From an uncultured bacterium (lineage in GTDB: Bacteria; Methylomirabilota; Methylomirabilia; Rokubacteriales; DASRDR01): DNA of 64,000 nt. Below, in pieces: positions 43,329 through 64,000 of the stretch. Under the pieces are notes generated by a model. That model was not told the DNA's origin. It saw only the letters and a program-made list of their open reading frames with translations, and searched no databases. The translations under genes were made by a program, and so were the position numbers. The stretch covers positions 6,540 through 70,539 of the forward strand of contig CAYQDR010000006.1 in assembly GCA_964416315.1 (NCBI GenBank), in the 5' to 3' direction. Each line of letters starts with the position of its first letter. Position 1 is the stretch's first letter.

Positions 43329-43336
43329 CGCGTGCC

Positions 43337-43370
43337 CCCCATGTGGCTCCGATTGTATGCGCACATGGGG
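43337..43370 (-). promoter_or_regulatory. inverted repeat CCCCATGTG-N16-CACATGGGG enclosing a TACAAT -10 box upstream of the Phd-like gene (candidate autoregulatory operator/promoter)
   Basis: read directly. Confidence 0.4.
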
Positions 43371-43629
43371 CGCGCAGCCAGCTCCCGGCGGCCCGTCGGA
43401 GCCCGGCTGCCACCGGTCAGCCCGGCGTTCGGGAACCAGAGCCCCTCCACGACGCGATGACGAGTGCCCCTTCACTGCCCTCGTGCGTCTCCTTGCTCGG
43501 CCTAGGCCCCGGTCGGGGTCACGGGGAGACAGACTTCCGGAGGTCGCCGGAAGGGACCGGTGGCTGACCAACGCGGATTGCACTAAGTTGACCACGGCTT
43601 CCCGCGATTCGGGTAGAATTCTCGACAAG

Positions 43630-47058: not shown

Positions 47059-48999
47059 ATGGCCAAGAGCCGCACTAAGAAAGCGCTGCCGAAGCGGCAG
47101 AAGCCTGTCGCTCGGAAACCGGCACTCACGCCGAGCTTCGCGAAAAAGCAGGAGGTCGCCATCACGGCGGCCAAGGGCCGGCCGATGCTCACGTGGGTCG
47201 GCAAGCGGCCTCTGCGAAATGTCGTCGCCTTCCCCGCCCAGCATGTCGAGACCTACGACCCCTCCGGCGACGCCGCCAAGCGTGGTGGCGACGTTTGGAA
47301 GGACTGGCCGGAAGCCTACCCGCGGGGCGGGCTCCTCTTCCACGGCGACAACAAGGAGGTGCTGGCGCATCTCCTGGCGAACGGCTTCCGAGGCAAGGTC
47401 AACCTGATCTATATCGACCCACCCTTCGACTCCGGTGCCGACTACGTGCGGAAAGTGAGCCTGCGCGGACCGAGGGGGACTGCCAAGCTCGACGGCGAAG
47501 GTTACACGCTCGGGGAACAGCTCCAGTACACCGACATCTGGGCCAACGACAACTACCTCCAGTTCATGTACGAGCGGCTTCTGCTACTGAAAGAGCTCCT
47601 GGCTGATGGTGGCTCCATTTTCCTCCACTGTGACAGTACTAAGGGCCATCATCTCCGCTGTCTAATGGACGAAGTCTTTGGAGCCGAAAAGTTCCTCAAT
47701 GAGATCGTTTGGAGCTATCGGCGGTGGCCGGCGGACACCGACTCATTTCAGTCGATGCACGACACAATTCTCTACTACGTCGTGGAAATCTCCAAGAAGC
47801 GTACCTTCCATCGCATGTATGAAGAAGCATCCGAAAGCTATCTCAGGCGATTCGGCGGCAAGACTCAGAAGCTCGACGAAGAGACCGGGACGCGAAAGAT
47901 CACCCTCGATCAGGAAACGAAAGGCATGCCTTTGCGCGACGTATGGGAGATATCCATAGTCGCCGGCTTCAAAGGGGAGCGGACCCAGTACCCAACCCAA
48001 AAGCCAGAGGAACTTGCCGCAAGAATCATAGAGGCCTGCTCTAACCCTGGGGATGTCGTTCTAGACTCTTTCGTCGGGTCTGGTACCACTGCGGCGGCTG
48101 CGCAGAGGCTAGGGCGCCGCTGGATTGCTTGCGACATCAACAAAGGCGCGATCCAGACCACGAGCAAGCGCCTCCAGACGATCATCGAGGAGCAGATCAA
48201 GCACGCGGCGAAAGGCCGGCAGGGTGCGTTAGCCGACGTCCCGGAGGGAAAAGAAGAGCAGGTCGAGTCCGCGCAACTTACTTTCTCAGTCTACCGGGTC
48301 AACGACTACGACCTGGCGATCCAGCACCAGGAGGCCGTCAACCTCGCCTGCGAGCACATCGGCGTGACGCGGATGCGGACCGACCGCTACTTCGATGGAA
48401 CCCTCGGCAAGAAGCTCGTCAAGGTTGTCCCGTTCTCGCACCCGCTGACGCTGCTGGACCTCGAGGAGCTCAAGCGCGAGCTGGACGCGCGGCCGGGCGA
48501 AGAGCGCGACGTCGTGCTCGTGTGCCTCGGCAAGGAGCCCGCCGCCGACGCCTGGATCGAGGACTGGGACCGCTTCCGAAGAGGCAAGACCGCGGTGAAC
48601 CGGATCGAGGTCATCGAGCTCCGGACAGATCCGAAATATGGCAAGTTCTTCCAGCACCAGCCGGCCAGAGCCAGGGTCAAGGCGGTCCGAAAGAACGACA
48701 CGCTAATGGTCCACATCGAGGACTTCATCTCGCCGAGCATCATTGAGCGTCTCCACAAGCAGGCCGGACTCCTCAAGCCGAAGATCGACGACTGGCGGGC
48801 GATGGTGGACTGCGTGATGCTCGACCTCGACTACGACGGCAAGGTCTTCCGGATCGGCCTCTCCGACGTGCCGGAACGGAAGACCGACCTGGTCGCCGGT
48901 CGCTACGAGATCCCGGCGGTCCGGAACGGCGCGACCGTGGCGGTCAAGATCATCGACATGCTCGGGGAGGAAGTCCTCGTTACCCTTCCCGCGAGTTGA
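47059..48999 (+). CDS. site-specific DNA methyltransferase, beta-class N6A/N4C (Type III Mod-like) with ~250-aa C-terminal extension
   Basis: motif IV IYIDPPFDSG before motif I FVGSGTT; ATG with SD-like GAGGGTCGAGG. Confidence 0.85.
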   Translation: MAKSRTKKALPKRQKPVARKPALTPSFAKKQEVAITAAKGRPMLTWVGKRPLRNVVAFPAQHVETYDPSGDAAKRGGDVWKDWPEAYPRGGLLFHGDNKEVLAHLLANGFRGKVNLIYIDPPFDSGADYVRKVSLRGPRGTAKLDGEGYTLGEQLQYTDIWANDNYLQFMYERLLLLKELLADGGSIFLHCDSTKGHHLRCLMDEVFGAEKFLNEIVWSYRRWPADTDSFQSMHDTILYYVVEISKKRTFHRMYEEASESYLRRFGGKTQKLDEETGTRKITLDQETKGMPLRDVWEISIVAGFKGERTQYPTQKPEELAARIIEACSNPGDVVLDSFVGSGTTAAAAQRLGRRWIACDINKGAIQTTSKRLQTIIEEQIKHAAKGRQGALADVPEGKEEQVESAQLTFSVYRVNDYDLAIQHQEAVNLACEHIGVTRMRTDRYFDGTLGKKLVKVVPFSHPLTLLDLEELKRELDARPGEERDVVLVCLGKEPAADAWIEDWDRFRRGKTAVNRIEVIELRTDPKYGKFFQHQPARARVKAVRKNDTLMVHIEDFISPSIIERLHKQAGLLKPKIDDWRAMVDCVMLDLDYDGKVFRIGLSDVPERKTDLVAGRYEIPAVRNGATVAVKIIDMLGEEVLVTLPAS

Positions 49000-49031: not shown

Positions 49032-49307
49032 CTACAAGTCGCCCTTGAGCCAGGCCCGGTAGGCGTCGAACCACTCTGCGCCGACCGGCGGCCGATCCGC
49101 CCATTCGAGGGCGGTGACGCCGACCCGGTAAGTCCGTCCCTTGCGCCGGCAGATGGCCCTGAACGGGCAGGCGACGCGATCCTCAAGCATCACCAGGAAT
49201 GCGCCGTGCTGCCGGTCCGCTCCATAAGCGTCGACGAGGACCTCCCCGATCAGTTGACGGAGGCGGGCTCTGCCCGTCCTGCCTTTCCGGCTCAACTCAG
49301 CGGACAC
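49032..49307 (-). CDS. hypothetical protein (91 aa)
   Basis: ORF overlapping end of upstream 538-aa gene by 16 nt; no family recognised. Confidence 0.45.
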   Translation of the reverse strand: MSAELSRKGRTGRARLRQLIGEVLVDAYGADRQHGAFLVMLEDRVACPFRAICRRKGRTYRVGVTALEWADRPPVGAEWFDAYRAWLKGDL

Positions 49308-50908
49308 CCTTCCGCCTCGAGCTTCCTCCAGATGAGCCGCTTCCTCCCGTGGCGCTGCCGGAGGTGCCGCAGGAGATCCGCCCAGAACCGTGGCTCACCG
49401 ACCAGCCGGGACAGCTCGGCGACGATGGCGCAGTAGTGGGCGGCCGGCGCCGCGCGTGACGGCCTGCCGGAGTCGAGATGCAGATCCACGAGTCGCTGGT
49501 ACATGGCGGCGGCGAGGCGCGCGTACTCGGCGCGGCTAGCGGTCCCGGGTCGCTCGAGGATGAGGCGAAGCCAGTCGTACGGTTCCTCCCGGTCGCGTCC
49601 CAGCCGGCGTTGAAGCTCCCTAAGCTTCGGGAACGCGGTGAGGTCCGCTCCGTCCGAGGCTTTGGCAACGGCGTACTTGGCCACGAGTTTCAGCTCGTCG
49701 AAGCCCATCCGACCCTGCCGGCCGGCGATCCCGTCGAAGACCTCGCGCTCCCGGCCCTCGGCCAGGAGAATGCGTGTCTTGAGCCCCGTCACGTGCCACG
49801 CCCCTTCTCCGGGCCGAGTCGCCGTCCGCAGCAGCCGCGCCAATACCGCGTCCCAGTTGGAGAGGGCCTCCGACTGCCGCCTCAGCGCCGCGAAGGCTGC
49901 GGCGTCGGGCTCCCTGAGAAACTGTGCGACCCGGGCCTCCTGGGCCGCCGACCGGTCCCCGAGGGCCTCCCGGGCCCGGATGAGGGCCGTGGCGAACTTC
50001 CCGTGGTGGCCGAACGTCCTGACCCCCACCTCAGCCAGCCTGGCCACCCCGGCCCAGTCCATCTTCCGCTCGTACTGGGAGAGCACCTCCTCCAGGTACA
50101 CGGCGTTCCGGGGCGCGAAGCGCTCCTTTAGGGCCAGGACCTCGGCCCGGTTGCGTCCGACCGTGGCCAGGGCGATGAGGCCGTCCACCTCGGTGGGACA
50201 GTCCGGCCGATCGGTCCTCAGGGCGCCCTCCGCTGCTGCGGTCAGCCGCATCTTGAGCCGCTCGCGGCCGTCCGCGTCCAAAGCCCTGGCCAATCCGGTG
50301 AAGCCCCCCCGGTATCCGAACTTCTTCGCGAGCGGCAGGATCTCGGTAATGACCCCCTCCACACCTCCGCGGCACGCCACCAGGCTCCGGGTGTAGCCCT
50401 CGACCACCCGGGCGAAGTCCAGGGCGATGGCGTCCTCCGGGGCTCCGTGATTGCCGAGAATGTCCGTCGTCTCCCCGGCCTCGGCCAGAAGCCCCAGTAG
50501 CAGGGCATAGGCTCTGACCGCTGCTGCGTGTTGCCCTGATCGGGTGAGCTCCAGCGCCCGGCTCATGAAGTCGGTGAAGAGCTCGACCCACTCTCCGAAC
50601 GCCTCCGACTCGTCCCCCTCGTCGCCCGGGTCAGACCACTCATCCTCAGGGATCCAGGAGACGAAGGCGCCCGAACGGGATTGCGCGCAAAAGTCTTCGA
50701 TTTCCTCGAGGAGCGCCCCCGGCCGGGAGCGTGAAGTCGAGCCCTTCGACCCGCGCGGCAGGTGCTCGCGGACCCACCGCGTCTGTCGGTGGGACGGCAG
50801 ATTGGCGATCTGCTCGGCCAGCAGCTCGGCGAGCTTCGCTTCGCCGAGGCGCGCCAGGTCGGCCTTCCGAACCGCCGCTCGACCGGGGCCGACCCTCCTT
50901 CGTGGCAT
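49292..50908 (-). CDS. hypothetical alpha-helical protein (538 aa), unknown function
   Basis: GAGAGGG SD before ATG 50908; GC3-rich; acidic stretch WSDPGDEGDESE; no family recognised. Confidence 0.55.
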   Translation of the reverse strand: MPRRRVGPGRAAVRKADLARLGEAKLAELLAEQIANLPSHRQTRWVREHLPRGSKGSTSRSRPGALLEEIEDFCAQSRSGAFVSWIPEDEWSDPGDEGDESEAFGEWVELFTDFMSRALELTRSGQHAAAVRAYALLLGLLAEAGETTDILGNHGAPEDAIALDFARVVEGYTRSLVACRGGVEGVITEILPLAKKFGYRGGFTGLARALDADGRERLKMRLTAAAEGALRTDRPDCPTEVDGLIALATVGRNRAEVLALKERFAPRNAVYLEEVLSQYERKMDWAGVARLAEVGVRTFGHHGKFATALIRAREALGDRSAAQEARVAQFLREPDAAAFAALRRQSEALSNWDAVLARLLRTATRPGEGAWHVTGLKTRILLAEGREREVFDGIAGRQGRMGFDELKLVAKYAVAKASDGADLTAFPKLRELQRRLGRDREEPYDWLRLILERPGTASRAEYARLAAAMYQRLVDLHLDSGRPSRAAPAAHYCAIVAELSRLVGEPRFWADLLRHLRQRHGRKRLIWRKLEAEGCPLS

Positions 50909-50922
50909 CCCGGCCCTCTCGC

Positions 50923-51602
<680 letters not shown>

Positions 51603-51606
<4 letters not shown>

Positions 51607-53090
51607 CGGCGCGCGAACACGGCGGCCCCGGTCCCGGCGAGCTGGCCGAACGTGGCCCCCGCCATGAGCCCGGCGCCTCCGGGGTAGTTGTAGTAGAACA
51701 GGCCGCCGACCAGCTCCCCGGCGGCATAGAGACCGGGGACGGGGCGATCCTCCGTGTCCAGGACGGCGGCGTCCGCGTTCACCCGGAGGCCCCCGAACGT
51801 GAACGTGATCCCGCACGTGACACCGTAGGCGACGTAGGGCGGGCTGTCGAGCCGCTGGGCCCAGTTCGACTTGGGCGGCGTGATCCCCCGGGTGCCCTTG
51901 CCGTCCAGGACCGACGGATCGAAGGGCTTGTCCTCGACGGCGAGGTTGAACTCCCGGACCGTCCGGACGAGACCGGCCACGTCGACCTCGCAGCGTCGCG
52001 CCAGCTCCTCGATCGTGCCGGCCTCGACCTTCGTGACCCGGCGGATCCGGTACTCTTCGCGCAGGAGCGGGACGACCTTCTGGTCGAAGATCTGCCAGCC
52101 CGCGCGGCCCGGCTGCTTGAGGACCTCGCGGCCGTATCTCGCGTACGTGTAGTTCCGGTAGTCGGCGCCCTCGTCCACGAAGCGCTCCCCGCGGAGGTTC
52201 ACCACGATCCCGAGGGGGTAGGAGTGCTTCTGGAAGAGGTCGAGCACCGTCCGATCGCCGAACTCCGGCGCGTTGAGGTCCCACTGGACGGCGTGGCACG
52301 ACGACCAGTGCCCGTAGGGCTGGGCGCCGATCTCCAGCGCCATGCGGATCCCGTCCCCGGTGTTGTGTCGCGTCCCGCGGACGCGGGCCAGCTCCCAGTC
52401 GGGCCCGAGGTAGCGGGTGCGCCACTCCGGGTTCGCCTCGAACCCGCCGCAGGCGAGGACGACCGCCCGCGCGGCGATCTCCTCGAACTCCTCGGGCCCG
52501 CGGGCGACGACACCCGTCACGGCGCCGCGCCGATCCACGAGCAGCCGGCGCGCGCCGGTCCCGTAGCGCACTTCGACGCCGACGCGGGCCGCGCGGTCGT
52601 AGAGGGCCTGGACGAGCCCGGCCCCACCCCCCACTGCCTCGACCGCCAGCCCACCCCAGAACCGGTGGCGCTCGCCGACTCTGAACGACTGGCGGCTCAG
52701 CATCAGGATCCAGCGCACCCCCTGACTCCGCATCCAGACCACCGTCGCCCGCGAGCGTCGGACCAGGAGGTCGGCGAGGTCCGGGTTGGCGCAGGCGTCG
52801 GTGAGCCGCATCAGGTCGTCGTAGAACGCCTCCTCGGGGTACGGCGGCACCTCGGCGGCCAGCGCTTCGGCTTCGGTGAGGTCGGGCAGGACGTCACGGC
52901 GGAGGTCCTCGAGCCCCCGGTGGGCGAACCGGAAGGCTCCCGCGGTGAACAGCGAGTTCCCCCCGCGCTCGACCTCGGCCGCCTTCTCGAGGACGAGGAC
53001 GCGCGCTCCCTGCTCGCGCGCCGCGAGCGCCGCGCACAGCGCCGCATTCCCACCCCCCACGACAATGACGTCGTACGCGCGATCCGTCAT
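51603..53090 (-). CDS. FAD-binding oxidoreductase (fumarate reductase/succinate dehydrogenase flavoprotein-like, TcuA-like)
   Basis: YDVIVVGGGNAALCAALAA dinucleotide fold, C-terminal LYAAGE motif. Confidence 0.8.
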
Positions 53091-53268: not shown

Positions 53269-54462
53269 CTACGCGCCGCGGCGGATCGCCTCGGCCGGCG
53301 GCAGCCGGAGGATCCGCGTCGTCGCGTAGGTCCCCGCGATCACGCCCAGCGCCGCCGCGAAGGCCACGGCGAAGGCGAGGAGGCGCCCGGTGAAGAGGAA
53401 GAGCTGCTGCCCCGCCTGGGCCGCCCGTGCGTCCACGGCCACCCCGGCGCCGAGCGCGAGGAGCGTGCCGAGGACACCCCCCGACAGGCTCACGACGAGG
53501 CTCTCGCGCAGGACCTCCCCGAGGAGCTGGACGTCCGTCGCGCCGAGGGCCTGCTTGATCCCGAAGTCGCGGAGCCGCTCGAACATGGACGCCGCCATCG
53601 TGTTGGAGAGCGACAACCCGCCCACCAGGAGCCCGATGCCCCCGACGCCGGCGAGGAGCCAGGTGAAGAAGACAGTGGAGGCGGCGAGCCGGCGCGCGAC
53701 CTCGCCGGGCGGGGCCACGTTCACCCCCGGCACCTCGCGCCGGATCCGCGCGGCGAGGGCGTCCGCGTCCACGCCGGGCGCCCACCCCACCGCGGCGCCC
53801 GTGTTCAGGTCCTCGCGCGCCACCGGACCGCCCGGCGCGAAGAGGAACCGGACAGTCGGGTCCAGGGCGAGCCAGAGGTCGCGCGCGTCCTCGAGGGGGA
53901 CGATCGCGAAGCGATCCGGGGCCGTGAGCAGGCGCTCGAGGATGCCCACGACCTCGAGCTCCCGATCGCCGACGCGGAGCCGGTCGCCGGGGCGGAGGCC
54001 GCGGGCCGCAGCGAAGTCCGCGCCCACGACGGCGCGGCCCCGATCGGCCGGGGCCAGGAACCGGCCGCGGGCGACCGGCAGCGTCGGGTAGTTCCGGTTC
54101 GGCGTCGGCACCGTCAGATCCACCCCCAGCACGAGCTCCTGGTTGATGCTGAACAGCTCGGAGGTCGCGGGATCGACCGGCACCATGACCTGCGCCTGGA
54201 CGACGCGAACGCCGGGGACCGCCCGGATCGCCTCGAGGGTGCGCCGGGGGAGGAGCCCGCCCGCGGTGAAGCCGGCGCCGCTCCCGATCCCCGCGCCCGC
54301 GACCGAGATCTGGCCAAGCACGAACCGGTGGCCGCCCTCGATGAAGCGGCTGATCCGCTCGGCGAGCGCCCCGAGCGCGACGAGACCGGCCATCCCGACG
54401 GCGATGCCCGTGATGGCGAACAGGTAGCCACGGGGCCACAGGCGTCGGGGAAGAGCCGGCAT
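53269..54462 (-). CDS. ABC transporter permease, FtsX/MacB-like
   Basis: N-terminal TM, large periplasmic domain, C-terminal 3-TM FtsX-like region; start ATG 54462 (SD too close) vs 54540 uncertain. Confidence 0.7.
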   Translation of the reverse strand: MPALPRRLWPRGYLFAITGIAVGMAGLVALGALAERISRFIEGGHRFVLGQISVAGAGIGSGAGFTAGGLLPRRTLEAIRAVPGVRVVQAQVMVPVDPATSELFSINQELVLGVDLTVPTPNRNYPTLPVARGRFLAPADRGRAVVGADFAAARGLRPGDRLRVGDRELEVVGILERLLTAPDRFAIVPLEDARDLWLALDPTVRFLFAPGGPVAREDLNTGAAVGWAPGVDADALAARIRREVPGVNVAPPGEVARRLAASTVFFTWLLAGVGGIGLLVGGLSLSNTMAASMFERLRDFGIKQALGATDVQLLGEVLRESLVVSLSGGVLGTLLALGAGVAVDARAAQAGQQLFLFTGRLLAFAVAFAAALGVIAGTYATTRILRLPPAEAIRRGA

Positions 54463-54678: not shown

Positions 54679-55962
54679 TCACCACGTCAGGCGGGATTCC
54701 ACCGGCAGGCCGCGCCGCCGCCGGGCGCGCCGGGTGATCCGGGTGACCAGGAACACCAGCGCGAGGCGCGCCCGGAGCCAGAGCGGCCGGCGCAGGAACG
54801 CGGCGCCCGCGAGGACCGCCACCACGGCGTCCCGGAGGACCCGGGGCGGGCTCGGGGAGAGGAACACCTCGAGGAACGACGGGTCGTAGTAGCGGTCGAT
54901 GAAGTCGAAGAACAGCCGCGCCCCACCGGCAATCCGCCGCCGGTACCGGTCGAAGCGGGCGGCGCGGAAGTCGCCGCGGCGGAACCCCTCGACGACGACC
55001 CGCGAGGCCAGCTCGGCGGACTGCATCGCGATGTAGACGCCGGTCGAGAAGATCGGATCCACGAACGTCACCGCGTCCCCGATCGCCACGAAGCGGTCGC
55101 CGATCGCGGGCACGGTTCGGTACGAGAAGTTCGCCGCCGTCCACACCCCCGTCGTCCGGGTCGCCCGCGCGAGCCCCGCCCGGACGCTCGGACAGGCCGC
55201 GATCATCTCGTCGAAGAGGCGCTCGACGGGGACCTGGCGGGCCTTGACGACGCGCTGGTGCAGGACGCAGCCGATGCTGGCGAGGTCCCCCGCGAAGGGG
55301 ATCCACCAGAACCAGCCGTGCTCGAACAGGTAAATCCGGATGTGCCCCTCGAGCCGCCCCTCCCAGCGCTCCGCCCCGCGAAAATGGGCGAACAGGGCGA
55401 CCTTCCCCAGGCTCGGCATCGGCTCGCGCCGCCCGAGCCGGGTGGCGGTGAGGGCGTCCCGGCCGCTCGCGTCCACGAGGAACGCCGCCTCGACCCGGTA
55501 GGAGCCGGCATCGTCGGTCCGGACGTCGAGCCGCACGCGATCGGCTTCAACGGCGACCTCGGCCACCTCCGCCCCCTCGAAGACCGCCGCCCCCTGCTTC
55601 ATCGCGTGATCGAGGAGCAGCCGGTCGAAGTCGGCGCGCGGCACGTTGTAGGAGTGGTCGGCCATGGCCACGCGCGCCTGGAAGTTGAAGACCACCTGCC
55701 GGCCCTCGATCTCGTCGATGAACGCGGCGCCGTGCTTGCGGATGAAGCCTGCCGCCTCGAGGGCCGGCAGGAGGCCGAGGCGCTCGAAGAGGGGGACGTT
55801 GGCGGGCAGGAGCGACTCGCCGATGTGGAAGCGCGGGAAGCGCTCCCGCTCGAAGCACGCGACGTCGAGCCCGGCCCGCGCGAGGAGGGTCGCCGCCGTC
55901 GCGCCGGCCGGTCCGCCCCCGACCACGGCGACGTCGTACCGGCTCCGGATGCGGTCGGCCAT
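54679..55962 (-). CDS. FAD-dependent oxidoreductase, flavin halogenase / geranylgeranyl-reductase-like
   Basis: YDVAVVGGGPAGATAA, later GDAVTFVDPIFSTG FAD-binding motifs. Confidence 0.8.
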   Translation of the reverse strand: MADRIRSRYDVAVVGGGPAGATAATLLARAGLDVACFERERFPRFHIGESLLPANVPLFERLGLLPALEAAGFIRKHGAAFIDEIEGRQVVFNFQARVAMADHSYNVPRADFDRLLLDHAMKQGAAVFEGAEVAEVAVEADRVRLDVRTDDAGSYRVEAAFLVDASGRDALTATRLGRREPMPSLGKVALFAHFRGAERWEGRLEGHIRIYLFEHGWFWWIPFAGDLASIGCVLHQRVVKARQVPVERLFDEMIAACPSVRAGLARATRTTGVWTAANFSYRTVPAIGDRFVAIGDAVTFVDPIFSTGVYIAMQSAELASRVVVEGFRRGDFRAARFDRYRRRIAGGARLFFDFIDRYYDPSFLEVFLSPSPPRVLRDAVVAVLAGAAFLRRPLWLRARLALVFLVTRITRRARRRRGLPVESRLTW

Positions 55963-55973
55963 CCCGTCCCCCC

Positions 55974-56720
55974 CTACGACTCGCCGGCCGCGGCCGGGAC
56001 CCGACGGCGGCCGAGCCCATCCGCCGCGAGCCGGTGGCCGGCCTCGCGCCACAGCTCCCGGGCGAGATACCAGGCGATGCGGCCGCCGTCGGCCAGCGCG
56101 CGGAACCGGCTCGCCCGCTCCAGCGGGTAGATCCGGCGGATCGGCACCGAGACGAGCCCGAATCCCGCCCGGACGCCGCGCACCAGCGCCTCGGTCTCGA
56201 GCACGAACCCTTCCTCGCGGAGGGAGACGGCCCGCAGGAGCGCCGCCGGGTAGATGCGAAAGCCGCACTGCGTGTCGCGAACGTCGGCGCGGACGAGCCG
56301 CGTCACGAGCCAGTCGGCGGCGCGGATCGCCCCTCGGCGGAGCGAGGGCACGCGGTCGCCGTCCCCCGAAGCCAGCCGATCGCCGACCACGAGGGCCTCC
56401 GGGGCCGCCCGGGCCGCGGCGAGGAGGCCGGGCAGATCCGTCGGGTCGTGCTGGCCGTCGCCGTCGAGGGTCGCGACCGCGGTCGCGTTCCGCCGGAGCG
56501 CCTCGGCAAAGCCCCGGCGGAGGGCGGCGCCCTTGCCGGCGCGGCGCGGGCTGCGGAGCACGCAGGCCGCCCCGGCCGCCGCGGCGCGGACATCGCTCCC
56601 GTCGGTCGAGGCGTCGTCCACGACGATCACCGGGCAGACCTCGCGGAGCCGGCGGACGACGGCGCCCACGGTGGCCGCCTCGTTGAAGACCGGCACGACC
56701 GCGACCAGGCTGCTCATCAT
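55974..56720 (-). CDS. glycosyltransferase family 2
   Basis: VVPVFNE...VVDDASTDGS...DGDGQHDP GT-A motifs; ATGA overlap with upstream gene. Confidence 0.8.
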   Translation of the reverse strand: MMSSLVAVVPVFNEAATVGAVVRRLREVCPVIVVDDASTDGSDVRAAAAGAACVLRSPRRAGKGAALRRGFAEALRRNATAVATLDGDGQHDPTDLPGLLAAARAAPEALVVGDRLASGDGDRVPSLRRGAIRAADWLVTRLVRADVRDTQCGFRIYPAALLRAVSLREEGFVLETEALVRGVRAGFGLVSVPIRRIYPLERASRFRALADGGRIAWYLARELWREAGHRLAADGLGRRRVPAAAGES

Positions 56721-57979
56721 GCCGCGGCGCGCTCGCGCCGCGCCGCGCCGGCGCGCTCGAGGAGCAGGGCGACGTGACCGCCGCCCCGCGCGAGGCCGTG
56801 GACGAGCACGGTCTGGGCGGAGCGTGACCCGGCCCCGCCGTTCGTCGCGAAGGCGAAGCCCCCCCGCACCGGCGTCCGGAGGTCGGGGAGCGGTGGGAGC
56901 CGCCCGCCGCCGAGCGTCGCGACCGCCGCACCCGCCACGGCGAGCACCCCGAGGCCGGCGTGGTCGCCGGCGAGCGGCGTCAGCGCGGTGAGCCGGGGCC
57001 CGGACGCACCCGGCGTCCCGAAGACCACCCCGATCAGGTCCAGCTCGCACACGTCTTGGGTCGGGTCCCCGCTCCCCGTGAGGTAGACGGCGTCCACCTC
57101 CGCCGGCTCGCGGCCGGCTCCCGCGAGGGCGCGGCGGATCACGGCCGGCGCGCGGCGGCGCCGCGTCGGGAACCCGTGGGCCGGCGCCGGCAGGTTGCCC
57201 CAGGCCACGCCCGTGAGGTCCGCGTAGACGCGCGCGCCGCGCGCCCGCGCGCTGTCCTCGGTCTCGAGCAGCACGGTCGTGGCGCCCTCGCCGAGCACCG
57301 TGCCGTTGGCGCGTCGGTCGAACGGCCAGCACCCCTCGGGCCCCGCCCCGCGCGGCGACGTCGTCCCGAGCCGCGTCAGCTCGCGGAAGACGATCGGGCA
57401 CAGCTCGTCCACGCCGCCGGCGAGGACCGCCGGGGCCCGCCCCGCCGCGACGAGGCCGGCCGCGCGAGCCACGGCCAGCTCGCCCGCGATCCCCGCCTGG
57501 TTCACCGTCAGCATGGGCCCGCGCGCCCCCAGGTTGATCGCCGCGAGCGCGGCCATCGCGTTCATGACCGTGTTCGGGAAGATCATCGGCGAGAGCCCCA
57601 GCGGGCCGCGGGCGAGGTAGCCCCGCGCGAACTCCTCCGACGACCGGAAGTCGCCCCACTGGGAGCCCAGGACGAGCCCGAGCCCCGGCAGCGCGCCGGC
57701 CTCGACGCCCGCGTCGGCCATCGCCAGTCGGCACGCGACCACGGCGAGCTGGCACACCCGGGAGAGCCGCCGCACCTCCTCCGGGGTCAGGTAGGGCGTG
57801 AGATCCCCGACCTCGGCGCCCAGGTGGCTCCGGAGGCCCGCAGTCGGGAAGGCCCGGATCGGCCCGATGGCGGGCGTCCGCGCCAGGGCCTCCACCACGT
57901 CGGCGCCAACGCCGACGCCGAGCGCGCTGACGGTGCCGACACCGGTCACGAACACCCGATGCCTCGGCTCAGGCGGCAC
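56717..57979 (-). CDS. beta-ketoacyl synthase-like protein lacking the active-site Cys (chain-length-factor-like)
   Basis: KAS fold (RVFVTGVGTVS...) but active-site region reads TVNQAGIAGE instead of ACSSG. Confidence 0.65.
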   Translation of the reverse strand: MPPEPRHRVFVTGVGTVSALGVGVGADVVEALARTPAIGPIRAFPTAGLRSHLGAEVGDLTPYLTPEEVRRLSRVCQLAVVACRLAMADAGVEAGALPGLGLVLGSQWGDFRSSEEFARGYLARGPLGLSPMIFPNTVMNAMAALAAINLGARGPMLTVNQAGIAGELAVARAAGLVAAGRAPAVLAGGVDELCPIVFRELTRLGTTSPRGAGPEGCWPFDRRANGTVLGEGATTVLLETEDSARARGARVYADLTGVAWGNLPAPAHGFPTRRRRAPAVIRRALAGAGREPAEVDAVYLTGSGDPTQDVCELDLIGVVFGTPGASGPRLTALTPLAGDHAGLGVLAVAGAAVATLGGGRLPPLPDLRTPVRGGFAFATNGGAGSRSAQTVLVHGLARGGGHVALLLERAGAARRERAAA

Positions 57980-59192
57980 CGGTCCCCCGACGGTCCGGGA
58001 TCCGGCGGAAGAGCAGGCTGAGGTTCTGCCCGCCGAACCCGAGCGAGTTGGACATGGCGTACTCGAGGCGGACTCGCCTGGCCGCGCCCGCGACGCACTC
58101 GAACGGGATCTCGGGGTCCGGCTCGCGGAGGTTCGCGGTCGGGGGGACCACGCCGTGGACGAGCGTCAGGACCGTCGAGACCGCCTCGAGCGCGCCCGCG
58201 GCCGCCATGGTGTGGCCGATGAGCGACTTGTTCGCGGTGAGGAGGACCGACTCCGGCCCGAAGACCTTCCGGATCGCGAGCGCCTCGGCCTGGTCGTTCT
58301 GCACCGTGCCCGTCCCGTGGGCGTTGACGTGACCGACGGCGGCGGCTGGGACGCCGGCCCGCTCGAGCGCCTCCACCATCGCCCGGGCGCTCCCCTCGCC
58401 GTCGGGGTGGGGCGCGGTCATGTGATGGGCGTCGGTCGTCAGGCCGTAGCCGGCGAGCTCGACGTAGGGGCGCGCCCCGCGCGCAGCCGCGCGCGCCGCG
58501 TCCTCGAGGACGACGAACCCCGCGCCCTCGCCGAGCGACATCCCGCGGCGGTCGCGCGAGAACGGGCGGCACGGCTCCGGGTCGAGAAGCTTCAGGGCGT
58601 TGAAGCCCATGAAGCAGATCCGCGTGAGCGCATCCACGCCGCCGGCCAGCGCGATCGGGGTCACCCCGGTCTCGATGAGGTCGGCGGCGAGCCCGATCGC
58701 AGCGCTCCCCGAGCTGCACGCGAGGACCACCGTCTCCTTGGGACCGGTCGTCTGGTATCGCCGCGCCAGAAGCTCGGCGTGCGCCGTGGGCAGCACGGTG
58801 CGCAGCGCCGTCCGGCGCGCCGGGTCGTCCACGCCCTCGCGCTGGAGTCGCCAGTACCAGGTCTCGACCTCCAGCATGCCCCCGCCGATGCCGCCGACGA
58901 CGATCCCCGCCGGGGCGAGCTCGGCGCGCGTGAGGCCGGCGTCGGTGATGGCCTCGTCCGCCGCCGCGATGGCCAGCCGGTCCCCGCGCGGGCGGCGCCG
59001 GGAGGCCCGGCGGATCGCCACGTCCGGCGGCACCTCGGCGGCGATGCGCGAGCGGAACCCGTCGGTCTCGAAGAGCGTCACGGGCCCGATCACGCATCGG
59101 CCGGCGACGAGACCAGCCCAGAACGCCTCCTGCCCCAGCCCGTACGGGCTCGTGACCCCGACCCCGGTGACGACGACGCGCGGTCGAGTCAT
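57969..59192 (-). CDS. beta-ketoacyl-ACP synthase II-like (active)
   Basis: RVVVTGVGVTSP, active Cys VLACSSGSAAIG, HGTGT and SLIGHT motifs. Confidence 0.85.
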   Translation of the reverse strand: MTRPRVVVTGVGVTSPYGLGQEAFWAGLVAGRCVIGPVTLFETDGFRSRIAAEVPPDVAIRRASRRRPRGDRLAIAAADEAITDAGLTRAELAPAGIVVGGIGGGMLEVETWYWRLQREGVDDPARRTALRTVLPTAHAELLARRYQTTGPKETVVLACSSGSAAIGLAADLIETGVTPIALAGGVDALTRICFMGFNALKLLDPEPCRPFSRDRRGMSLGEGAGFVVLEDAARAAARGARPYVELAGYGLTTDAHHMTAPHPDGEGSARAMVEALERAGVPAAAVGHVNAHGTGTVQNDQAEALAIRKVFGPESVLLTANKSLIGHTMAAAGALEAVSTVLTLVHGVVPPTANLREPDPEIPFECVAGAARRVRLEYAMSNSLGFGGQNLSLLFRRIPDRRGTGAA

Positions 59193-59243
59193 TCGAGACC
59201 CCCCGCACCCCCGTCCCCTCCCACCCTTCGGGGGGAGGGGGGG
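59188..59243. repeat. G-rich 5'-UTR element copy 1 (GTCATTCGAGACCCCCCGCACCCCCGYCCCCTCCCACCCTTCGGGGGGAGGGG); contains the KAS start codon context
   Basis: tandem copy at 59277-59330, third partial at 59388-59406. Confidence 0.65.
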
Positions 59244-59276
59244 ACGCGCGGCCCTCGGCCCGCTCGCCCCCGGTGG

Positions 59277-59330
59277 GTCATTCGAGACCCCCCGCACCCC
59301 CGCCCCCTCCCACCCTTCGGGGGGAGGGGA
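59277..59330. repeat. G-rich 5'-UTR element copy 2
   Basis: see 59188-59243. Confidence 0.65.
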
Positions 59331-59421
59331 GCCCGGCGCTGCAGGCGCTCCTCGAGACGCCCAGGCGTGACGCCGCCTCCCTCATGCGGGTCCCCCGCAC
59401 CCCCGGTTGACACCGGGTGTC

Positions 59422-59709
59422 TCACAGGGCCTCTCCCCGACCCTGCTCCCGCACGAAGCGGGCGAGCGCCCCCAGCGTGGCGAAGTGCGCCTGGACATGG
59501 ACATCCTCACCCTCCTCCACCACGACCCCGAAGCGCTCCTCCAGCGCGATGGCCAGCTCGATGAAGTCGAGCGAGTCCAGGCCGAGCGATCCCTCGACCC
59601 CCTTGGGCAACGGCGTCTCCGGGGAAATCGCCGCGACCGTCTTCGGGTCGAACCGAAGCCGCTTGACGACGATGTCTCGAAGCTCGTCGAGGATCGCCCG
59701 CTCGTCCAT
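59422..59709 (-). CDS. acyl carrier protein
   Basis: 95 aa with LGLDSLDFIELA phosphopantetheine-attachment motif; GAGGAGG SD. Confidence 0.85.
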   Translation of the reverse strand: MDERAILDELRDIVVKRLRFDPKTVAAISPETPLPKGVEGSLGLDSLDFIELAIALEERFGVVVEEGEDVHVQAHFATLGALARFVREQGRGEAL

Positions 59710-59730
59710 CCGTCCTCCTCGGATTCCCGG

Positions 59731-60705
59731 TTACAAGGGCCAGAGCATCGCCGCGTAGTCCTGGCGCCACGCCGCCGTCGCGAGGCACGGGCCTTCGAGG
59801 CCCGACGCCCGCGCCCGGGCGAGGCCGATCAGGGGTCCGGACGCGAACGCCTCGCCGAGGTCGCCCACTCCCACGCGCGTCGCCGCCACGCCGCGCGCGG
59901 CGAGCGCCGCGGCCTCGAAGCGCCCGGGTCCGCGCCCCGGGACGCACCCGGCCAGCGTCCGCGGCCGACGATCCCGGAGGACCGCCTCGAGCACGGCGGC
60001 GACGGACCCGGACGCCTCCCGTCCCGACGCGGCGGCAGACGCCCAGGCGAGCGGCTCGCCCCCGCCGGGCTCGACCAGGAGGCACGCGGCGCTCTCGATC
60101 AGAGGCCCGGCGTAGAGGCGCCGCGCGCGGGTGAAGAGGTCCCACACCTCGTGCACGGCCTCGACGGCCAGGACGAGGACGCGGTCCGCCACGCCGTCCG
60201 CGAGCCAGCGCGCGGCGACCCAGAGCCCCTGGAGGGCGGTCGGACCGCCCCCCATGAGGTTCACGTACGGCCCGCGGATCCCGTACTCGATCGTGACCTC
60301 CGCGGGCACGGCGCTCGGCGCCGTGTACGGGAAGTGGAGCGTCGTCGAGCCCTCGTCCTCGAGGAATGCCCGGTTCGCCGACGCGTACGCGGTCGCGCTC
60401 GCGTACAGCACCCCCGTGCGGGGGCCCGCCAGCGCCGCCGTGTCGAGCCCCGCGTCCCGGGCCGCCGCCCGGACGGCCGCGACGCCGAGGAGGCACTCGC
60501 GGGTCGCGCGCCGGAAGCGCTCCCCGGCGAACGCGGGCGTGGGCACGGCAACCAGGCCGCGCGCCCCCTCGGGACCCGCGGCGTCGGGCGCCGCCAGGCC
60601 CTCGCCCCAGCCCGTGAGGATGCCGGCGCCGCGGATCACCGGGGCCGGCGCCTGGGCGACCGGCACCGCGTGACGGACCTCGCGCTCGACGGTCGCCGGC
60701 GTCAT
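59731..60705 (-). CDS. beta-ketoacyl synthase-like protein lacking active-site Cys (CLF-like partner)
   Basis: KAS-fold similarity; active-site position reads LYASATAYASA; ATGA overlap with upstream KAS. Confidence 0.55.
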   Translation of the reverse strand: MTPATVEREVRHAVPVAQAPAPVIRGAGILTGWGEGLAAPDAAGPEGARGLVAVPTPAFAGERFRRATRECLLGVAAVRAAARDAGLDTAALAGPRTGVLYASATAYASANRAFLEDEGSTTLHFPYTAPSAVPAEVTIEYGIRGPYVNLMGGGPTALQGLWVAARWLADGVADRVLVLAVEAVHEVWDLFTRARRLYAGPLIESAACLLVEPGGGEPLAWASAAASGREASGSVAAVLEAVLRDRRPRTLAGCVPGRGPGRFEAAALAARGVAATRVGVGDLGEAFASGPLIGLARARASGLEGPCLATAAWRQDYAAMLWPL

Positions 60706-61919
60706 GCCGCCGCCAGGACCAGGGCGGCGTTGCAGCCGCCGAAGCCGAGGGAGGTGGACAGGCTGACGCGGGGCCGGTGGCGCCGCGCCTGGTTCGGGAC
60801 GCAGTCGAGGTCGCAGCCCGGGTCGGCTTCGCCGTAGTTGAGGGTCGGCGGCACCTGGCCGTGACGGCCCGCGAGGAGGCACATGATCGCCTCCAGCGTG
60901 GCCGCCGCCCCCATCGTGTGGCCCAGGTGCGCCTTGATCGAATTCACCGGGATCGCATACGCGTGCCGCCCGAGGACGCGCTTGAGCACGTCGGTTTCGA
61001 CCCGGTCACTGACGGGCGTCCCCGTCCCGTGCGCGCTGACGAGGTCGACCGCCTCGGGGCCCAGCCCCGCCTCGCTGAGCGCCTGGCGAACCGCCAGCTC
61101 GAGGCCGCGCCCCTCGGGGTCCGGCGCCGTGATGTGGGCGCCATCGGCGGTGCTCGCGTGGCCGAGCAGGAGCCCGAGCGGCGCCCCGTGGCCGCGCCCC
61201 CGGGCCGCCGCGGGCCGCTCCATGACGACGACCCCTGCCCCCTCGCCCAGGAGGATGCCGCTGCGCCGCCGGTCGAAGGGCCGCACCTCGTCGCGCGTGA
61301 GCGAGCGCAGCACGTTGAAGCCCCGCTGGACGAAGCGGCAGAGGACGTCCACGCCGCCCGCGAGCGCCCAGTCGGCGCGGCCGGCCCGGAGGAGGTCGGC
61401 TGCGACGCCGAGGCTGGTCGCCCCCGACGCGCAGGCCGTCGAAACCGTGAGGACCGGACCCGCCGCGCCGAGGGCGTGCGCGAGGTTCCAGGTGGGCCCG
61501 TCGTAGAGCGACCCGAGCAGGGCTCGGACGCCGCCGTGACCGCGCAGCGCGCGTCCCGCGTCATCGATCCCGCCGAGCGCGGTGCCGATCACGACGGCCA
61601 CGCGCGCCGGATCCGGGAACCCACCAGCGAATCCGGCGCTCGTCAGCGCCTCCTCCGCTGCGCGCCGGAGGAAGCGGGAGGCACGGCAGGCGGGCGGCCG
61701 GCGTCCGTCGCGGGCGAGCGGCCCGAGGCCGCGCCCCTCGCGCGCGGCCAGCTTCTTCACCTCCCCAGCGCGCCCCACGCGCAGGTCGGCGACCGGGAAG
61801 CGCTCGATCTGCGAGATCCCGGAGACACCCGTGATGAGGCCCGCCCAGAACGCGTCGAGGTCATGCCCGATCGGGCTGACGACACCGGCGCCGGTGATGG
61901 CGATCGGCTCAGCCGCCAT
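60702..61919 (-). CDS. beta-ketoacyl-ACP synthase (active)
   Basis: IAITGAGVVSP, active Cys VSTACASGATS, SAHGTGT, KAHLGHT. Confidence 0.85.
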   Translation of the reverse strand: MAAEPIAITGAGVVSPIGHDLDAFWAGLITGVSGISQIERFPVADLRVGRAGEVKKLAAREGRGLGPLARDGRRPPACRASRFLRRAAEEALTSAGFAGGFPDPARVAVVIGTALGGIDDAGRALRGHGGVRALLGSLYDGPTWNLAHALGAAGPVLTVSTACASGATSLGVAADLLRAGRADWALAGGVDVLCRFVQRGFNVLRSLTRDEVRPFDRRRSGILLGEGAGVVVMERPAAARGRGHGAPLGLLLGHASTADGAHITAPDPEGRGLELAVRQALSEAGLGPEAVDLVSAHGTGTPVSDRVETDVLKRVLGRHAYAIPVNSIKAHLGHTMGAAATLEAIMCLLAGRHGQVPPTLNYGEADPGCDLDCVPNQARRHRPRVSLSTSLGFGGCNAALVLAAA

Positions 61920-62006
61920 GATCGTCAGACAGGGGGGAGCCCCCTCCGGGGGACCCCCTCCCTGACCCCTCCACCTGGGGGTCGCACGCTCGTGCGTTGC
62001 CCTCGC

Positions 62007-62933
62007 TCACGGCCGCTCCGAACTCCACACGTCGAAGAAGTTGAACCACTGCTCCCAGTACCCCGTGACGTAGCGCTCGAGCACGGTGACCGCGCGCGCC
62101 AGGCCCCGCTCCTCCTCGCCCCGCCTCACGTCGAACGCGGCCTCGACACACAGCCGGTACCGCCCTCCCTCGTCGAGGACACAAAACGCGGGCACGACCG
62201 GCACGCCCGCCGCTCCGGCCATGACGAACGGCCCGAGGGGGAACGCCGCCGCCGCGCCGAAGAAGGGGACGCGCCGGTCACCGCGGTCGCCCATCGCCCG
62301 GTCCATCTGGAAGGCGACGAACTCGCCCCGCCTGAGCGCGGCGACGAGCTCCACCGAGACGAGGGGGCTCGTCCGACGGACGGCGCGCAGCCCGCTATCC
62401 GGGTCGCCGTCCAGGATGGCCGCGACCCCCGGCTCTTGCTCCGGGGCCATGACGAGGTGCACGCGCCGACCGAAGGTGGCCAGCAGCCGGCCCGCGAGCT
62501 GCCAGTTGCCGAGGTGCGCCGTGACGAACACGCTGCCGCGCTCCCGCGTGAGCAACTCCCGGGCCGGCTGGTCGCACTCCACTCTGGCCACGTGTTGCCA
62601 AAGCTTCGCCGCGGGCTCGCGGTTCAGCGACAGGAGGTCGGCGAAGCACACGGCGAAACGCTGGAAGACCCGACGCACGGCCGCGTCCAGCCAGGCCCCG
62701 TCGCGCCCCGGGTGCACGCGCGCGAGGTTTCGGCCGACCGCGGCCCGCTCCACCGCGAGGCACGGGGCGAGGACGCGCGCCGCTCCCGCGGCAAGCCACC
62801 GCCGAGCCCGGCGCGGCAAGCGCGGGGCGGTCGCGAGCGCCAGCCGGTAGTAGCTTGGGCGATTGTAGGAGTGGGCATACCAGCGCGCCGGCGACGGAGT
62901 CGGCGGGGCGGCGGGCGGCGCGGCTACGCTCAT
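62007..62933 (-). CDS. lysophospholipid/lipid A-type acyltransferase (LpxL/HtrB family)
   Basis: family-like sequence incl. VFVTAHLGNWQL acyltransferase HX4D-region analogue. Confidence 0.65.
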   Translation of the reverse strand: MSVAAPPAAPPTPSPARWYAHSYNRPSYYRLALATAPRLPRRARRWLAAGAARVLAPCLAVERAAVGRNLARVHPGRDGAWLDAAVRRVFQRFAVCFADLLSLNREPAAKLWQHVARVECDQPARELLTRERGSVFVTAHLGNWQLAGRLLATFGRRVHLVMAPEQEPGVAAILDGDPDSGLRAVRRTSPLVSVELVAALRRGEFVAFQMDRAMGDRGDRRVPFFGAAAAFPLGPFVMAGAAGVPVVPAFCVLDEGGRYRLCVEAAFDVRRGEEERGLARAVTVLERYVTGYWEQWFNFFDVWSSERP

Positions 62934-63193: not shown

Positions 63194-64000
63194 CTAGAGC
63201 AAGGGCGAGGCGAAGAGCCGGAATACGCGGATGCGGCCCGGCGGGCTGTACGGCAGCCCGGCGACCCAGAAGGCCCGCGTCGCGGGGTCGTAGCGGAACT
63301 CGAGGGGGGTGTCGGGATCGTTCGGATCGTACGCGAGAAACGCGACGCCCCCGAACCGCGGCCGGTAGTCGTAGACCAGGACCGCGTGGTTCAAGAGGTC
63401 GGGCTCGGGGAAGTTCGTGATCATCAAAGGCGCAGGCTGCCCGGCGTCCAACTCCGCCACGAGCTCCGCCGCGACACGGCTCTGGTGGCCGGCCCCCAGC
63501 GGCAGGGCGACGCGCCAGGTCCGCCAGTGGATCATGCTCAGCAGGTTCGAGTCGAACGCGGTCTTGATCGCCTCCTCCTGGGCGCGCGAGAGCGTGTAGA
63601 GATCCGGATAGCCCGGGATGACGATCCGCTCCCCGTCGCGTCGCGGCGCCTCCCAGGGCCTCTGGGCCATGACCTCTCGGCCGAGCCGCGTATACTCCCC
63701 GGGCGCCAGCGGCGGCTCCCCGGGAGCGAAGCGGGCGAAGCGGTAGAACTGGCTCGCCGCGCGCGCCATTACGATGCAGTAGTTGGCGAAGTCCACCGCC
63801 CTCTCCGGGTGCTCCCCGCGGACGAGGTTCGCGAAGGCGAACGTGTCCTGTCCCAGCTCGAACCGAGCGGCAGGCGCGGGCGTCCGGCCGCGCCCCGGCC
63901 GCGGGAGCACGGACTCGGGCCCGGCCGTAGCGCACCCCGTCAGCGCGATCCCGAAGAGGACAAGCGCCAGCCAGCGCGAGGGTCGGAACCGGCAGAGCCC
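63194..64000 (-). CDS. partial lipoprotein of unknown function (N-terminus incl. lipobox LTGC lies at window end and beyond)
   Basis: ORF 63194-63910 continues in frame to window edge; translated N-term ...LALVLFGIALTGCATAG. Confidence 0.45.
   Translation of the reverse strand, partial: GLCRFRPSRWLALVLFGIALTGCATAGPESVLPRPGRGRTPAPAARFELGQDTFAFANLVRGEHPERAVDFANYCIVMARAASQFYRFARFAPGEPPLAPGEYTRLGREVMAQRPWEAPRRDGERIVIPGYPDLYTLSRAQEEAIKTAFDSNLLSMIHWRTWRVALPLGAGHQSRVAAELVAELDAGQPAPLMITNFPEPDLLNHAVLVYDYRPRFGGVAFLAYDPNDPDTPLEFRYDPATRAFWVAGLPYSPPGRIRVFRLFASPLL

Follow-up and report, generated by a model that had tools for sequence, protein, structure and literature searches.

A conserved Rokubacteria operon with two FabF-derived ketosynthase pairs and a split ApeJ-like module, a candidate pathway for an acylated envelope glycolipid

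The rhizobial system for very long chain fatty acids (VLCFA) on lipid A comprises AcpXL, FabF1XL, FabF2XL, FabZXL, LpxXL and Adh, and hopanoid-lipid A conjugates on such fatty acids are known in Bradyrhizobium. The heterocyst glycolipid pathway combines a type I polyketide synthase (PKS) and a glycosyltransferase with DevBCA export to the envelope, and PatA acylates the mannose of a glycophospholipid. In the aryl-polyene lipid (APEL) cluster (apeA-R; E. coli CFT073/Xenorhabdus doucetiae) the core genes encode ketosynthases (KS; apeO/R), acyl carrier proteins (ACP; apeE/F), a chain-length factor (CLF; apeC), dehydratases (DH; apeI/P), a ketoreductase (KR; apeQ) and a transporter (apeM) (Grammbitter et al.). 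The Xenorhabdus aryl-polyene lipid is a diacyl-glycerol-phosphate-GalNAc with its sugar esterified by the polyene (bioRxiv 10.1101/2020.12.19.423268; PMC8253772), and ApeJ has been proposed to transfer GalNAc onto a phosphatidyl intermediate and then to acylate the sugar with the ApeE-bound chain (bioRxiv 10.1101/2020.12.19.423268). Xanthomonadins are halogenated, and the lipoprotein gene apeA is the first gene of the cluster in E. coli (PMC8253772). In the ladderane cluster of anammox bacteria, an amxFabF2/amxFabFmut heterodimer decarboxylates malonyl-ACP to initiate synthesis (bioRxiv 10.64898/2026.05.19.726425). Here we describe an operon that shares parts with each of these systems, found in a 64,000-nucleotide stretch of DNA (hereafter the window) from an uncultured bacterium of the Rokubacteriales, phylum Methylomirabilota (assembly GCA_964416315.1, contig CAYQDR010000006.1, positions 6,540 to 70,539 of the forward strand). 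The literature was searched and no paper describing this operon was found.

Coding frames were picked by a third-position GC frame plot, as long spurious ORFs are common in this window of ~72% GC, and gene families were assigned by Pfam and NCBIfam domain scans of the predicted proteins. Reading down from 64000, every genuine gene is encoded by the minus strand, and the operon spans ~50923 to beyond 64000, which makes it longer at both ends than the initial annotation had flagged. In the direction of transcription it begins with a lipoprotein (63194-64000; DUF8321/DUF8322, lipobox LTGC) truncated by the window edge, of which the window holds the 3' part and an identical contig, L001 (5287-6147), the complete 286 aa. 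This is followed by an LpxL-superfamily acyltransferase similar to the C-terminal half of ApeJ (62007-62933; PF03279, 80 bits), an active FabF-like ketosynthase, KS1, with both KS domains and the motif STACASGA (60702-61919), and its short Cys-less CLF-like partner, CLF1, a protein of 324 aa with the N-terminal ketoacyl-synt domain only (59731-60705; 36 bits). Next come a dedicated ACP with a PP-binding domain and the serine motif GLDSLDF (59422-59709), a second active FabF-like ketosynthase, KS2, with the motif VLACSSGS (57969-59192), and its full-length Cys-less KS-fold partner, CLF2 (56717-57979; alternative start 57955). A family 2 glycosyltransferase (GT2) of the lipid-phosphate sugar synthase type, similar to the N-terminal half of ApeJ (55974-56720; PF00535, 77 bits), precedes a flavin-dependent halogenase-like enzyme whose C-terminal tail is hydrophobic and basic (54679-55962; Trp_halogenase PF04820, 105 bits). 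The distal part encodes a MacB-type ABC permease (53269-54462; MacB periplasmic domain PF12704, 62 bits, and FtsX PF02687, 58 bits), a TcuA-family FAD flavoprotein (51603-53090; NCBIfam PRK08274 (TcuA), 603 bits, cut-off 369) and an ABC ATPase of the LolD/MacB/DevA type (50923-51606; PF00005, 106 bits). Stop and start codons overlap as ATGA between KS1 and CLF1 and between CLF2 and GT2, and as GTGA between TcuA and the ATPase; KS2 and CLF2 overlap by 11 nt or are separated by 13 nt, depending on the choice of the CLF2 start. A promoter and terminator scan was uninformative across this region of 72-78% GC. Every gene of the earlier list (an LpxL-type acyltransferase, two pairs of a KS and a Cys-less partner, an ACP, a GT2 and a halogenase-like enzyme) was recovered by frame plot, Pfam and NCBIfam. 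The MacB/LolD-like exporter does lie on the same strand as had been stated, but downstream in the direction of transcription and not upstream.

The operon is strongly conserved within one lineage. A scan of one genome per species returned 124 relatives, of which the best 80 loci were compared by tblastn with the window proteins; gene presence was counted in the 46 loci covering the full span. CLF2 has 901 detectable homologues, and those that carry names are from Methylomirabilota/Candidatus Rokubacteria. Nearly all of the best 80 of the 124 loci are titled Rokubacteria, Rokuibacteriota or Methylomirabilota, the exceptions being three Binatia, one 'Deltaproteobacteria', one 'Nitrosotalea' bin and several entries titled 'uncultured bacterium'. 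The relatives share one fixed order, namely lipoprotein, (acyltransferase), KS1, CLF1, ACP, KS2, CLF2, GT2, (halogenase), permease, (TcuA), ATPase, and 45 of the 46 full-span loci are colinear. KS1, KS2, CLF2 and the ATPase are present in 46/46 of these loci, CLF1, the ACP, GT2 and the permease in 45/46 each, the lipoprotein in 42/46, the halogenase in 33/46, the acyltransferase in 28/46 and TcuA in 1/46. Thus the acyltransferase and the halogenase are accessory, while the lipoprotein, the KS/CLF pairs, the ACP, the GT2 and the ABC transporter are near-universal. The suspicion that the partial lipoprotein gene at the window edge belonged to the cluster was borne out, since it is the first gene in those 42 relatives. 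De novo clustering of flanking ORFs revealed that in a distant subclade the operon is flanked by the housekeeping genes DHODH, TsaE, YjeF and RadC, which agrees better with vertical inheritance in the core genome than with a mobile secondary-metabolite island. Gene content, active-site states, homologies and conservation were all read directly from these data. Bins that carry the names Nitrosotalea (an archaeon), Binatia or Deltaproteobacteria also contain the operon (L031, L032, L046, L069, L035), which is most simply explained by mis-binning or occasional transfer.

We favour, with moderate confidence, the explanation that this is a vertically inherited operon of Rokubacteria/Methylomirabilota which makes, anchors and exports a specialised acylated envelope glycolipid, in the style of ApeJ and with FabF-derived KS/CLF pairs. 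In such a pathway, a housekeeping transacylase would load malonate onto the dedicated ACP, on which KS1/CLF1 and KS2/CLF2 heterodimers would prime and elongate an acyl or polyketide chain, its length being set by the inactive partners CLF1 and CLF2. Reduction and dehydration would be borrowed from primary fatty-acid synthesis or largely skipped, and the halogenase, where present, would modify the ACP-bound chain. The GT2 would move a sugar, probably HexNAc, to a lipid phosphate to give a lipid-phosphate-sugar, and the LpxL/PatA-like acyltransferase would shift the chain from the ACP to this sugar; together, these steps of GT2 and acyltransferase would reproduce what ApeJ has been proposed to do when aryl-polyene lipids are assembled. 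Finally, the product would be drawn out of the inner membrane and passed in the direction of the outer membrane by the MacB-type ABC transporter together with the periplasmic lipoprotein. We infer that the heterodimers form, what each step does chemically and what kind of product results.

To examine the KS/CLF pairs, KS1, KS2, CLF1 and CLF2 were aligned with E. coli FabF, orthologues of each included, and the columns of Cys164, His304, Lys336, His341 and Phe401 were read. In KS1 the first four residues are invariant in 68/68 sequences and Phe401 is kept in 66/68; KS2 keeps all five in 80/80. The Cys column of CLF2 holds Gly in the window and Thr, Asp or Gly among orthologues, and both His are lost, these columns being Ser/Thr and Asp/Glu/Gln/Arg. 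In CLF1 the Cys column is Gly or Ala and the C-terminal half is much reduced. The orthologue alignment and the gene junctions thus confirmed that there are two active ketosynthases, each followed by a Cys-less KS-fold partner, as had been proposed from the sequence of the window. CLF2 was also considered as a KS-Q type on account of a Gln two residues before the Cys column (TVNQAG), a residue that is not conserved, and the assignment was dropped. By sequence, CLF2 scored 136 bits with FabF and 80 bits with the act CLF. Among solved structures, chain B of PDB entry 9s5h is the best relative of KS1 (249 bits, followed by B. subtilis FabF with 239) and the fourth-best of KS2 (280 bits; Thermus FabF, 300), and chain C also matches KS1 and CLF2. 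The entry is probably the anammox amxFabF2/amxFabFmut heterodimer, and this heterodimer is the closest functional precedent for the KS/CLF pairs. In both cases an active FabF-derived KS stands beside a FabF-derived partner with a dead triad, in a lipid cluster with its own ACP. There are two such pairs here, as compared to the anammox heterodimer (probably PDB 9s5h/9s5i), and one of the partners is strongly shortened. The operon also differs from the ladderane cluster in having no radical SAM enzymes or dedicated FabZ, and in having a GT2, an acyltransferase, a halogenase and an exporter.

Housekeeping FabF was defined by the NCBIfam equivalog TIGR03150 with its cut-off of 493.75 bits, and both ketosynthases fell far under it (KS2, 352 bits; KS1, 308 bits). 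KS2 was searched against a representative library (50%) of 1.84 billion proteins; multi-KS megasynthases dominate the result and only single-domain matches were used. The family of KS2 itself forms one cluster in this library, and the next single-domain relatives are 43-51% identical. The nearest single-domain relatives there score 316-444 bits on the fabF model, all below the cut-off. In a neighbour-joining (NJ) tree, drawn without support values, KS1, KS2 and CLF2 are each monophyletic and stand apart from ApeO/ApeR. Two proteins of ~820 aa with two FabF-like halves fused, P0242 and P0245, were among the best KS2 matches in the library, and their C-terminal halves fall near CLF2 in the tree, which suggests that this type of KS and CLF occurs in fused form elsewhere.

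To compare the operon with the APEL cluster, the 18 Ape proteins of E. coli CFT073 were searched by tblastn against the window and the 80 loci and, together with E. coli FabF and AcpP, compared by blastp with the cluster proteins. The GT2 aligns with residues 6-224 of ApeJ (32% identity over 222 aa, 100 bits) and the acyltransferase with residues 362-550 (30% identity over 189 aa, 65 bits by blastp); blastp gave no match between the acyltransferase and ApeD. A profile built from 41 orthologues of the acyltransferase scored 87.5 bits with ApeJ residues 267-550 and 61.8 bits with E. coli LpxL. Thus, as judged by alignment, the GT2 and the acyltransferase correspond to the two halves of ApeJ, split into separate genes. 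On NCBIfam models the GT2 scored best with PpgS, a polyprenyl-P-GalNAc synthase, at 94 bits, and next with AglJ at 88 bits, without reaching either cut-off, and its PDB matches were DPMS and ArnC. For the acyltransferase the top NCBIfam model was that of a PIM acyltransferase (64 bits, below cut-off), and its PDB matches were PatA chains only. The ACP, in which the motif GLDSLDFIEL is conserved across 77 sequences, scored 45 bits with ApeE and 29 bits with E. coli AcpP. Its top NCBIfam model was PRK09184 (43.6 bits, under the cut-off of 70), and the provisional NCBIfam ACP families gave at most 18 bits. The homology that links the operon to aryl-polyene clusters lies in this predicted anchoring module alone, with the GT2 similar to the N-terminal part of ApeJ, the acyltransferase to its C-terminal part and the ACP to ApeE.

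The product of 54679-55962 carries the GxGxxG, WxWxIP and catalytic Lys motifs of flavin-dependent halogenases, and halogenation is predicted. The motifs GGGPxG, GFxxKxGAxF (with its Lys), GWFWWIP and the second FAD motif GDAxxFVDPIFSxGV are kept in 54 orthologues. Its PDB matches were ChlB4 (222 bits), PltA (214), 5buk (212), CmlS (197) and 3e1t (174), enzymes which we take to act on carrier-protein-bound substrates; its score on the CmlS equivalog model was 230 bits, far under the cut-off of 900. In the lipoprotein, Cys93, Asn222, His223, Asp243 and Asp246 are invariant in an alignment of 32 sequences. An AlphaFold (AF2) model of it (pLDDT 79) gave no significant Foldseek match in the PDB (best E 0.026), with weak papain-fold matches only. 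These weak matches and the invariant residues suggest that the lipoprotein could act in the periplasm as a Cys-His-Asp transferase or hydrolase and not as a passive carrier. The permease and the ATPase fit a MacB-type (type VII) ABC transporter, with transport as the predicted function. NCBIfam scores of the ATPase were 205 bits for LolD, 203 for MacB and 167 for DevA, all below cut-offs, and the DevC model scored 20 bits with the cluster, likewise below cut-off. The heterocyst glycolipid pathway resembles the operon in joining a polyketide or fatty chain, a glycosyltransferase and a MacB/DevCA-type exporter, but no DevB-like membrane fusion protein was seen here and the DevA/DevC scores do not reach their cut-offs. 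A role as pathway desaturase was considered for the TcuA-family gene between the permease and the ATPase and then dropped. Its score passes the cut-off of the TcuA equivalog, and just the nearest relatives have it (L004, L005, L008, L009, L010, L012), so that it is treated as a clade-specific insertion, a passenger or accessory gene. No TcuB partner was seen with it.

Several observations weigh against a specialised envelope glycolipid made by the proposed steps. No cultured organism carries the cluster and no product of it is known. The operon has no ketoreductase, dehydratase or enoyl reductase (ER), save for a FabG-like gene in 8 loci, and with KR, DH and ER missing from most clusters the chain length and oxidation state of the product cannot be predicted. 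The acyltransferase is missing from 18/46 full-span clusters, and there acyl transfer must be encoded elsewhere (as in L083 and L085) or achieved differently. In ~21 distant loci a GT-C glycosyltransferase resembling ArnT/PMT lies right after the ATPase; together with the resemblance of the GT2 to polyprenyl-phosphate sugar synthases, this would instead agree with a route over a carrier lipid to an acceptor in the periplasm. The anammox identity of 9s5h is deduced and does not appear in the text of the preprint, and a literature search for the PDB code 9S5H returned nothing relevant. Partners of the MacA, TolC or DevB type were not seen in the operon or in recurrent flanks, although no dedicated search for them was made.

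An alternative, by analogy with the rhizobial AcpXL/FabF1XL/FabF2XL/LpxXL system, is that the operon remodels lipid A or a glycolipid similar to lipopolysaccharide (LPS), with the dedicated ACP and FabF paralogues making a very long or otherwise unusual fatty acid and the LpxL-type enzyme placing it onto lipid A. The rhizobial locus likewise groups FabF paralogues with an ACP of their own and an acyltransferase of the LpxL family, and the acyltransferase here belongs to PF03279 and scores 40-47 bits on lipid A lauroyl acyltransferase models. The likeness of the GT2 to ArnC-type synthases, the ArnT-like GT-C after the operon in ~21 loci and the hopanoid genes nearby (see below) also agree with it. 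We nevertheless consider this alternative unlikely. The acyltransferase family resembles the C-terminal half of ApeJ more closely than it does E. coli LpxL, and the gene is optional, being absent from the 18 full-span loci mentioned above. For the ACP, ApeE is a closer match than are the other NCBIfam ACP models. Neither a FabZXL-like dehydratase nor an alcohol dehydrogenase of the Adh type is present, and the GT2, the halogenase, the lipoprotein and the MacB-type exporter are additional here as compared to the rhizobial system, in which the halogenase and the exporter would have no place.

A minimal aromatic or highly reducing type II PKS would instead make a diffusible metabolite, with the ABC pump serving self-resistance or export and the GT2 tailoring. 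The KS/CLF/ACP architecture and the presence of a halogenase are in keeping with this, as is the predicted fold of CLF1. An AF2 model of CLF1 built with 31 homologues (pLDDT 83, pTM 0.86) had as its top Foldseek matches Iga12 of the ishigamide system (6kxe_B, E 3.7e-15, TM 0.76) and AntE (6smo), ahead of FabFs, at a sequence identity to solved CLFs of 14-20%. Iga11, the partner of Iga12 as AntD is of AntE, scored 199 bits with KS1 and 241 with KS2, and the NCBIfam models of AmcF (cispentacin) gave 252-257 bits. We judge this explanation improbable, as the ketosynthases score higher with FabFs (~239-300 bits) than with the act KS (194 for KS1, 202 for KS2) or AntD (175). The operon has no cyclase, aromatase, thioesterase or amide-forming release enzyme and, compared to highly reducing type II PKSs, no dedicated KR or DH. 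Moreover, it is conserved vertically in one lineage among housekeeping genes and not patchily, and both the lipoprotein and the anchoring module suggest that the product is bound to the membrane.

The initial annotation had proposed an aryl-polyene/xanthomonadin-type or other specialised glycolipid pathway, and the first of these would be a genuine pigment of the aryl-polyene, xanthomonadin or flexirubin type, for which an aromatic starter would be elongated into a polyene that may be halogenated and is fixed in the outer membrane. This is very unlikely in our view. In its favour are the ApeJ-like GT2 and acyltransferase, the ApeE-like ACP and the KS/CLF pairs, the lipoprotein as first gene like apeA, and a halogenase class that acts on carrier-bound aromatic or pyrrole substrates, xanthomonadins being halogenated (PMC8253772). 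However, tblastn searches of the window and the 80 loci were negative for ApeB, C, D, G, H, I, K, L, M, N and P, and the contigs that extend past the window edge showed no dehydratase, ApeC-type CLF, ApeH, K, L, M or N either. ApeH, the acyl-ACP synthetase for the aryl starter, and the thioesterase ApeK were also without match by blastp, and so was ApeC among the cluster proteins. In the test for ApeC-type CLFs (PF13723), ApeC itself scored 225 bits, CLF2 22.8 bits (cut-off 25) and CLF1 gave no match. The ketosynthases are nearer to FabF than to ApeO/ApeR: KS1 and KS2 scored 171 and 212 bits with E. coli FabF and 150-170 bits with ApeO/ApeR by blastp, and the PDB entries of Ape ketosynthases (7f27, 7f28, 6qsp) gave 137-149 bits with KS1 and 163 bits (ApeR) with KS2. 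Export also differs, since the APEL set of ApeM (MMPL), the LolA-like ApeL and ApeN (DUF3261) has no homologues in the window or the 80 loci, and in its place stand the MacB-type permease and ATPase and an unrelated lipoprotein. Both clusters have dedicated export machinery; it is of the MMPL and LolA/LolB-like kind in APEL and of the MacB ABC type here. ApeJ is one protein there and two genes here, and two ACPs there compare with one here. The phylum is a different one, and inheritance of the Rokubacteria cluster is vertical.

The expectation that a FabZ-like dehydratase, a ketoreductase and a LolA-like gene would appear past 64000 was not realised. Three metagenome contigs encode the identical acyltransferase and show the sequence beyond the window edge, where they carry the rest of the lipoprotein and, upstream of it (L001 1-5000), genes for a DDE transposase, a caspase-like Peptidase_C14 and a CsgG-family protein of 249 aa (PF03783, 156 bits). 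None of the 80 related loci has an equivalent of this CsgG-like gene, which was excluded as an operon member. ApeI/ApeP dehydratases had no match in or beside the operon, on the contigs past the edge, or in the 80 loci, and an ApeQ/FabG-like reductase was present in 8/80 loci only. In these 8 loci, which have no acyltransferase at this position, a FabG-like short-chain dehydrogenase (SDR) adjoins the lipoprotein upstream (L028 2978-3844; also L024, L025, L029, L032, L043); it is the sole reductive enzyme ever observed adjoining the cluster. With the ApeC-type CLF, the dehydratases and ApeM of the core set absent and the ketosynthases closer to FabF, the proposed aryl-polyene/xanthomonadin-type identity was not upheld.

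That the genes are ordinary FabF paralogues and an AcpP-like carrier of housekeeping fatty-acid synthesis beside unrelated envelope genes is hardly credible even though FabF is the top-scoring family for both KS and their full catalytic apparatus is kept, because their fabF scores and those of their nearest single-domain relatives lie under the cut-off, their partners are catalytically dead and translationally coupled, no fabH, fabD, fabZ or fabI occurs in the window or in the relatives' flanks, the two FabG-like (SDR) genes of the window are ~27 and ~44 kb from the operon, and 45/46 loci keep them in one order with the GT2 and the ABC transporter. The claim of a specialised, glycolipid-type and non-housekeeping pathway therefore stood, given the fabF scores of 352 and 308 bits, the Cys-less partners and the absence of the fab operon genes (fabH, fabD, fabG, acpP, fabZ, fabI) next to it in the window. 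The initial annotation had named housekeeping-type KS domains and an ordinary fab neighbourhood as signs to the contrary; the KS domains did prove FabF-like, but the neighbourhood is not one of fab genes.

Rokubacteria are plentiful in soil, have large genomes and have not been cultured. According to surveys, they carry moderate numbers of KS domains (PMC7298704). If the envelope glycolipid explanation is true, a near-universal inherited lipid operon would account for part of this count, and the operon would concern the cell envelope and not the making of antibiotics. A glycolipid, possibly halogenated, would then be expected as a diagnostic biomarker of Rokubacteria/Methylomirabilota. Sugar addition and acylation of the predicted ApeJ type would thus occur as two separate genes outside aryl-polyene clusters. 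What is new is the combination of a split ApeJ-type module with FabF-derived KS/CLF pairs of the anammox kind and a MacB-type exporter.

Further downstream of the operon, the window carries a trio on the minus strand: a CDP-alcohol phosphotransferase (39788-40966), an HpnL-like membrane protein of the LPG_synthase_TM family (38775-40001) and a radical SAM enzyme matching the HpnJ equivalog (37345-38757; 751 bits, cut-off 578). The same trio stands directly after the ATPase in L013, L017, L018 and L027. Of the 80 loci, 38 carry an HpnJ orthologue on the operon's strand and downstream of it, as do 11 of the 16 loci with at least 6 kb of downstream sequence. No hpnI or hpnK was seen beside the trio. 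The linkage may be plain conserved synteny, or it may hint at an anchor of hopanoid or cyclitol chemistry. A bolder form of the envelope lipid proposal, in which the operon makes a lineage-defining outer-membrane lipid with a halogenated acyl chain esterified to the sugar of its head group and perhaps, in place of a phospholipid, a hopanoid- or cyclitol-type anchor from these neighbouring genes, appears rather doubtful. In the ~21 distant loci with the ArnT/PMT_2-like GT-C (707 aa; L060 15716-17836), a small secreted protein of unknown family (149 aa; L041 14425-14871) lies between the ATPase and the GT-C; both genes are absent from the window. In the window, the segment 41345-50908 is an apparent insertion of mobile DNA that separates the operon from the hpn-like trio. 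Next to the operon it encodes a 538-aa protein (49292-50908) with no family match, which has a homologue in L008 only and was on that ground excluded as an operon member. Beyond this lie a pair read from its translations as type III-like restriction-modification genes (43123-46629 and 47059-48999, plus strand) and a DUF222/HNH endonuclease gene (41345-42874). The GC content of the restriction-modification stretch is 0.62-0.67, as compared to ~0.72-0.78 nearby.

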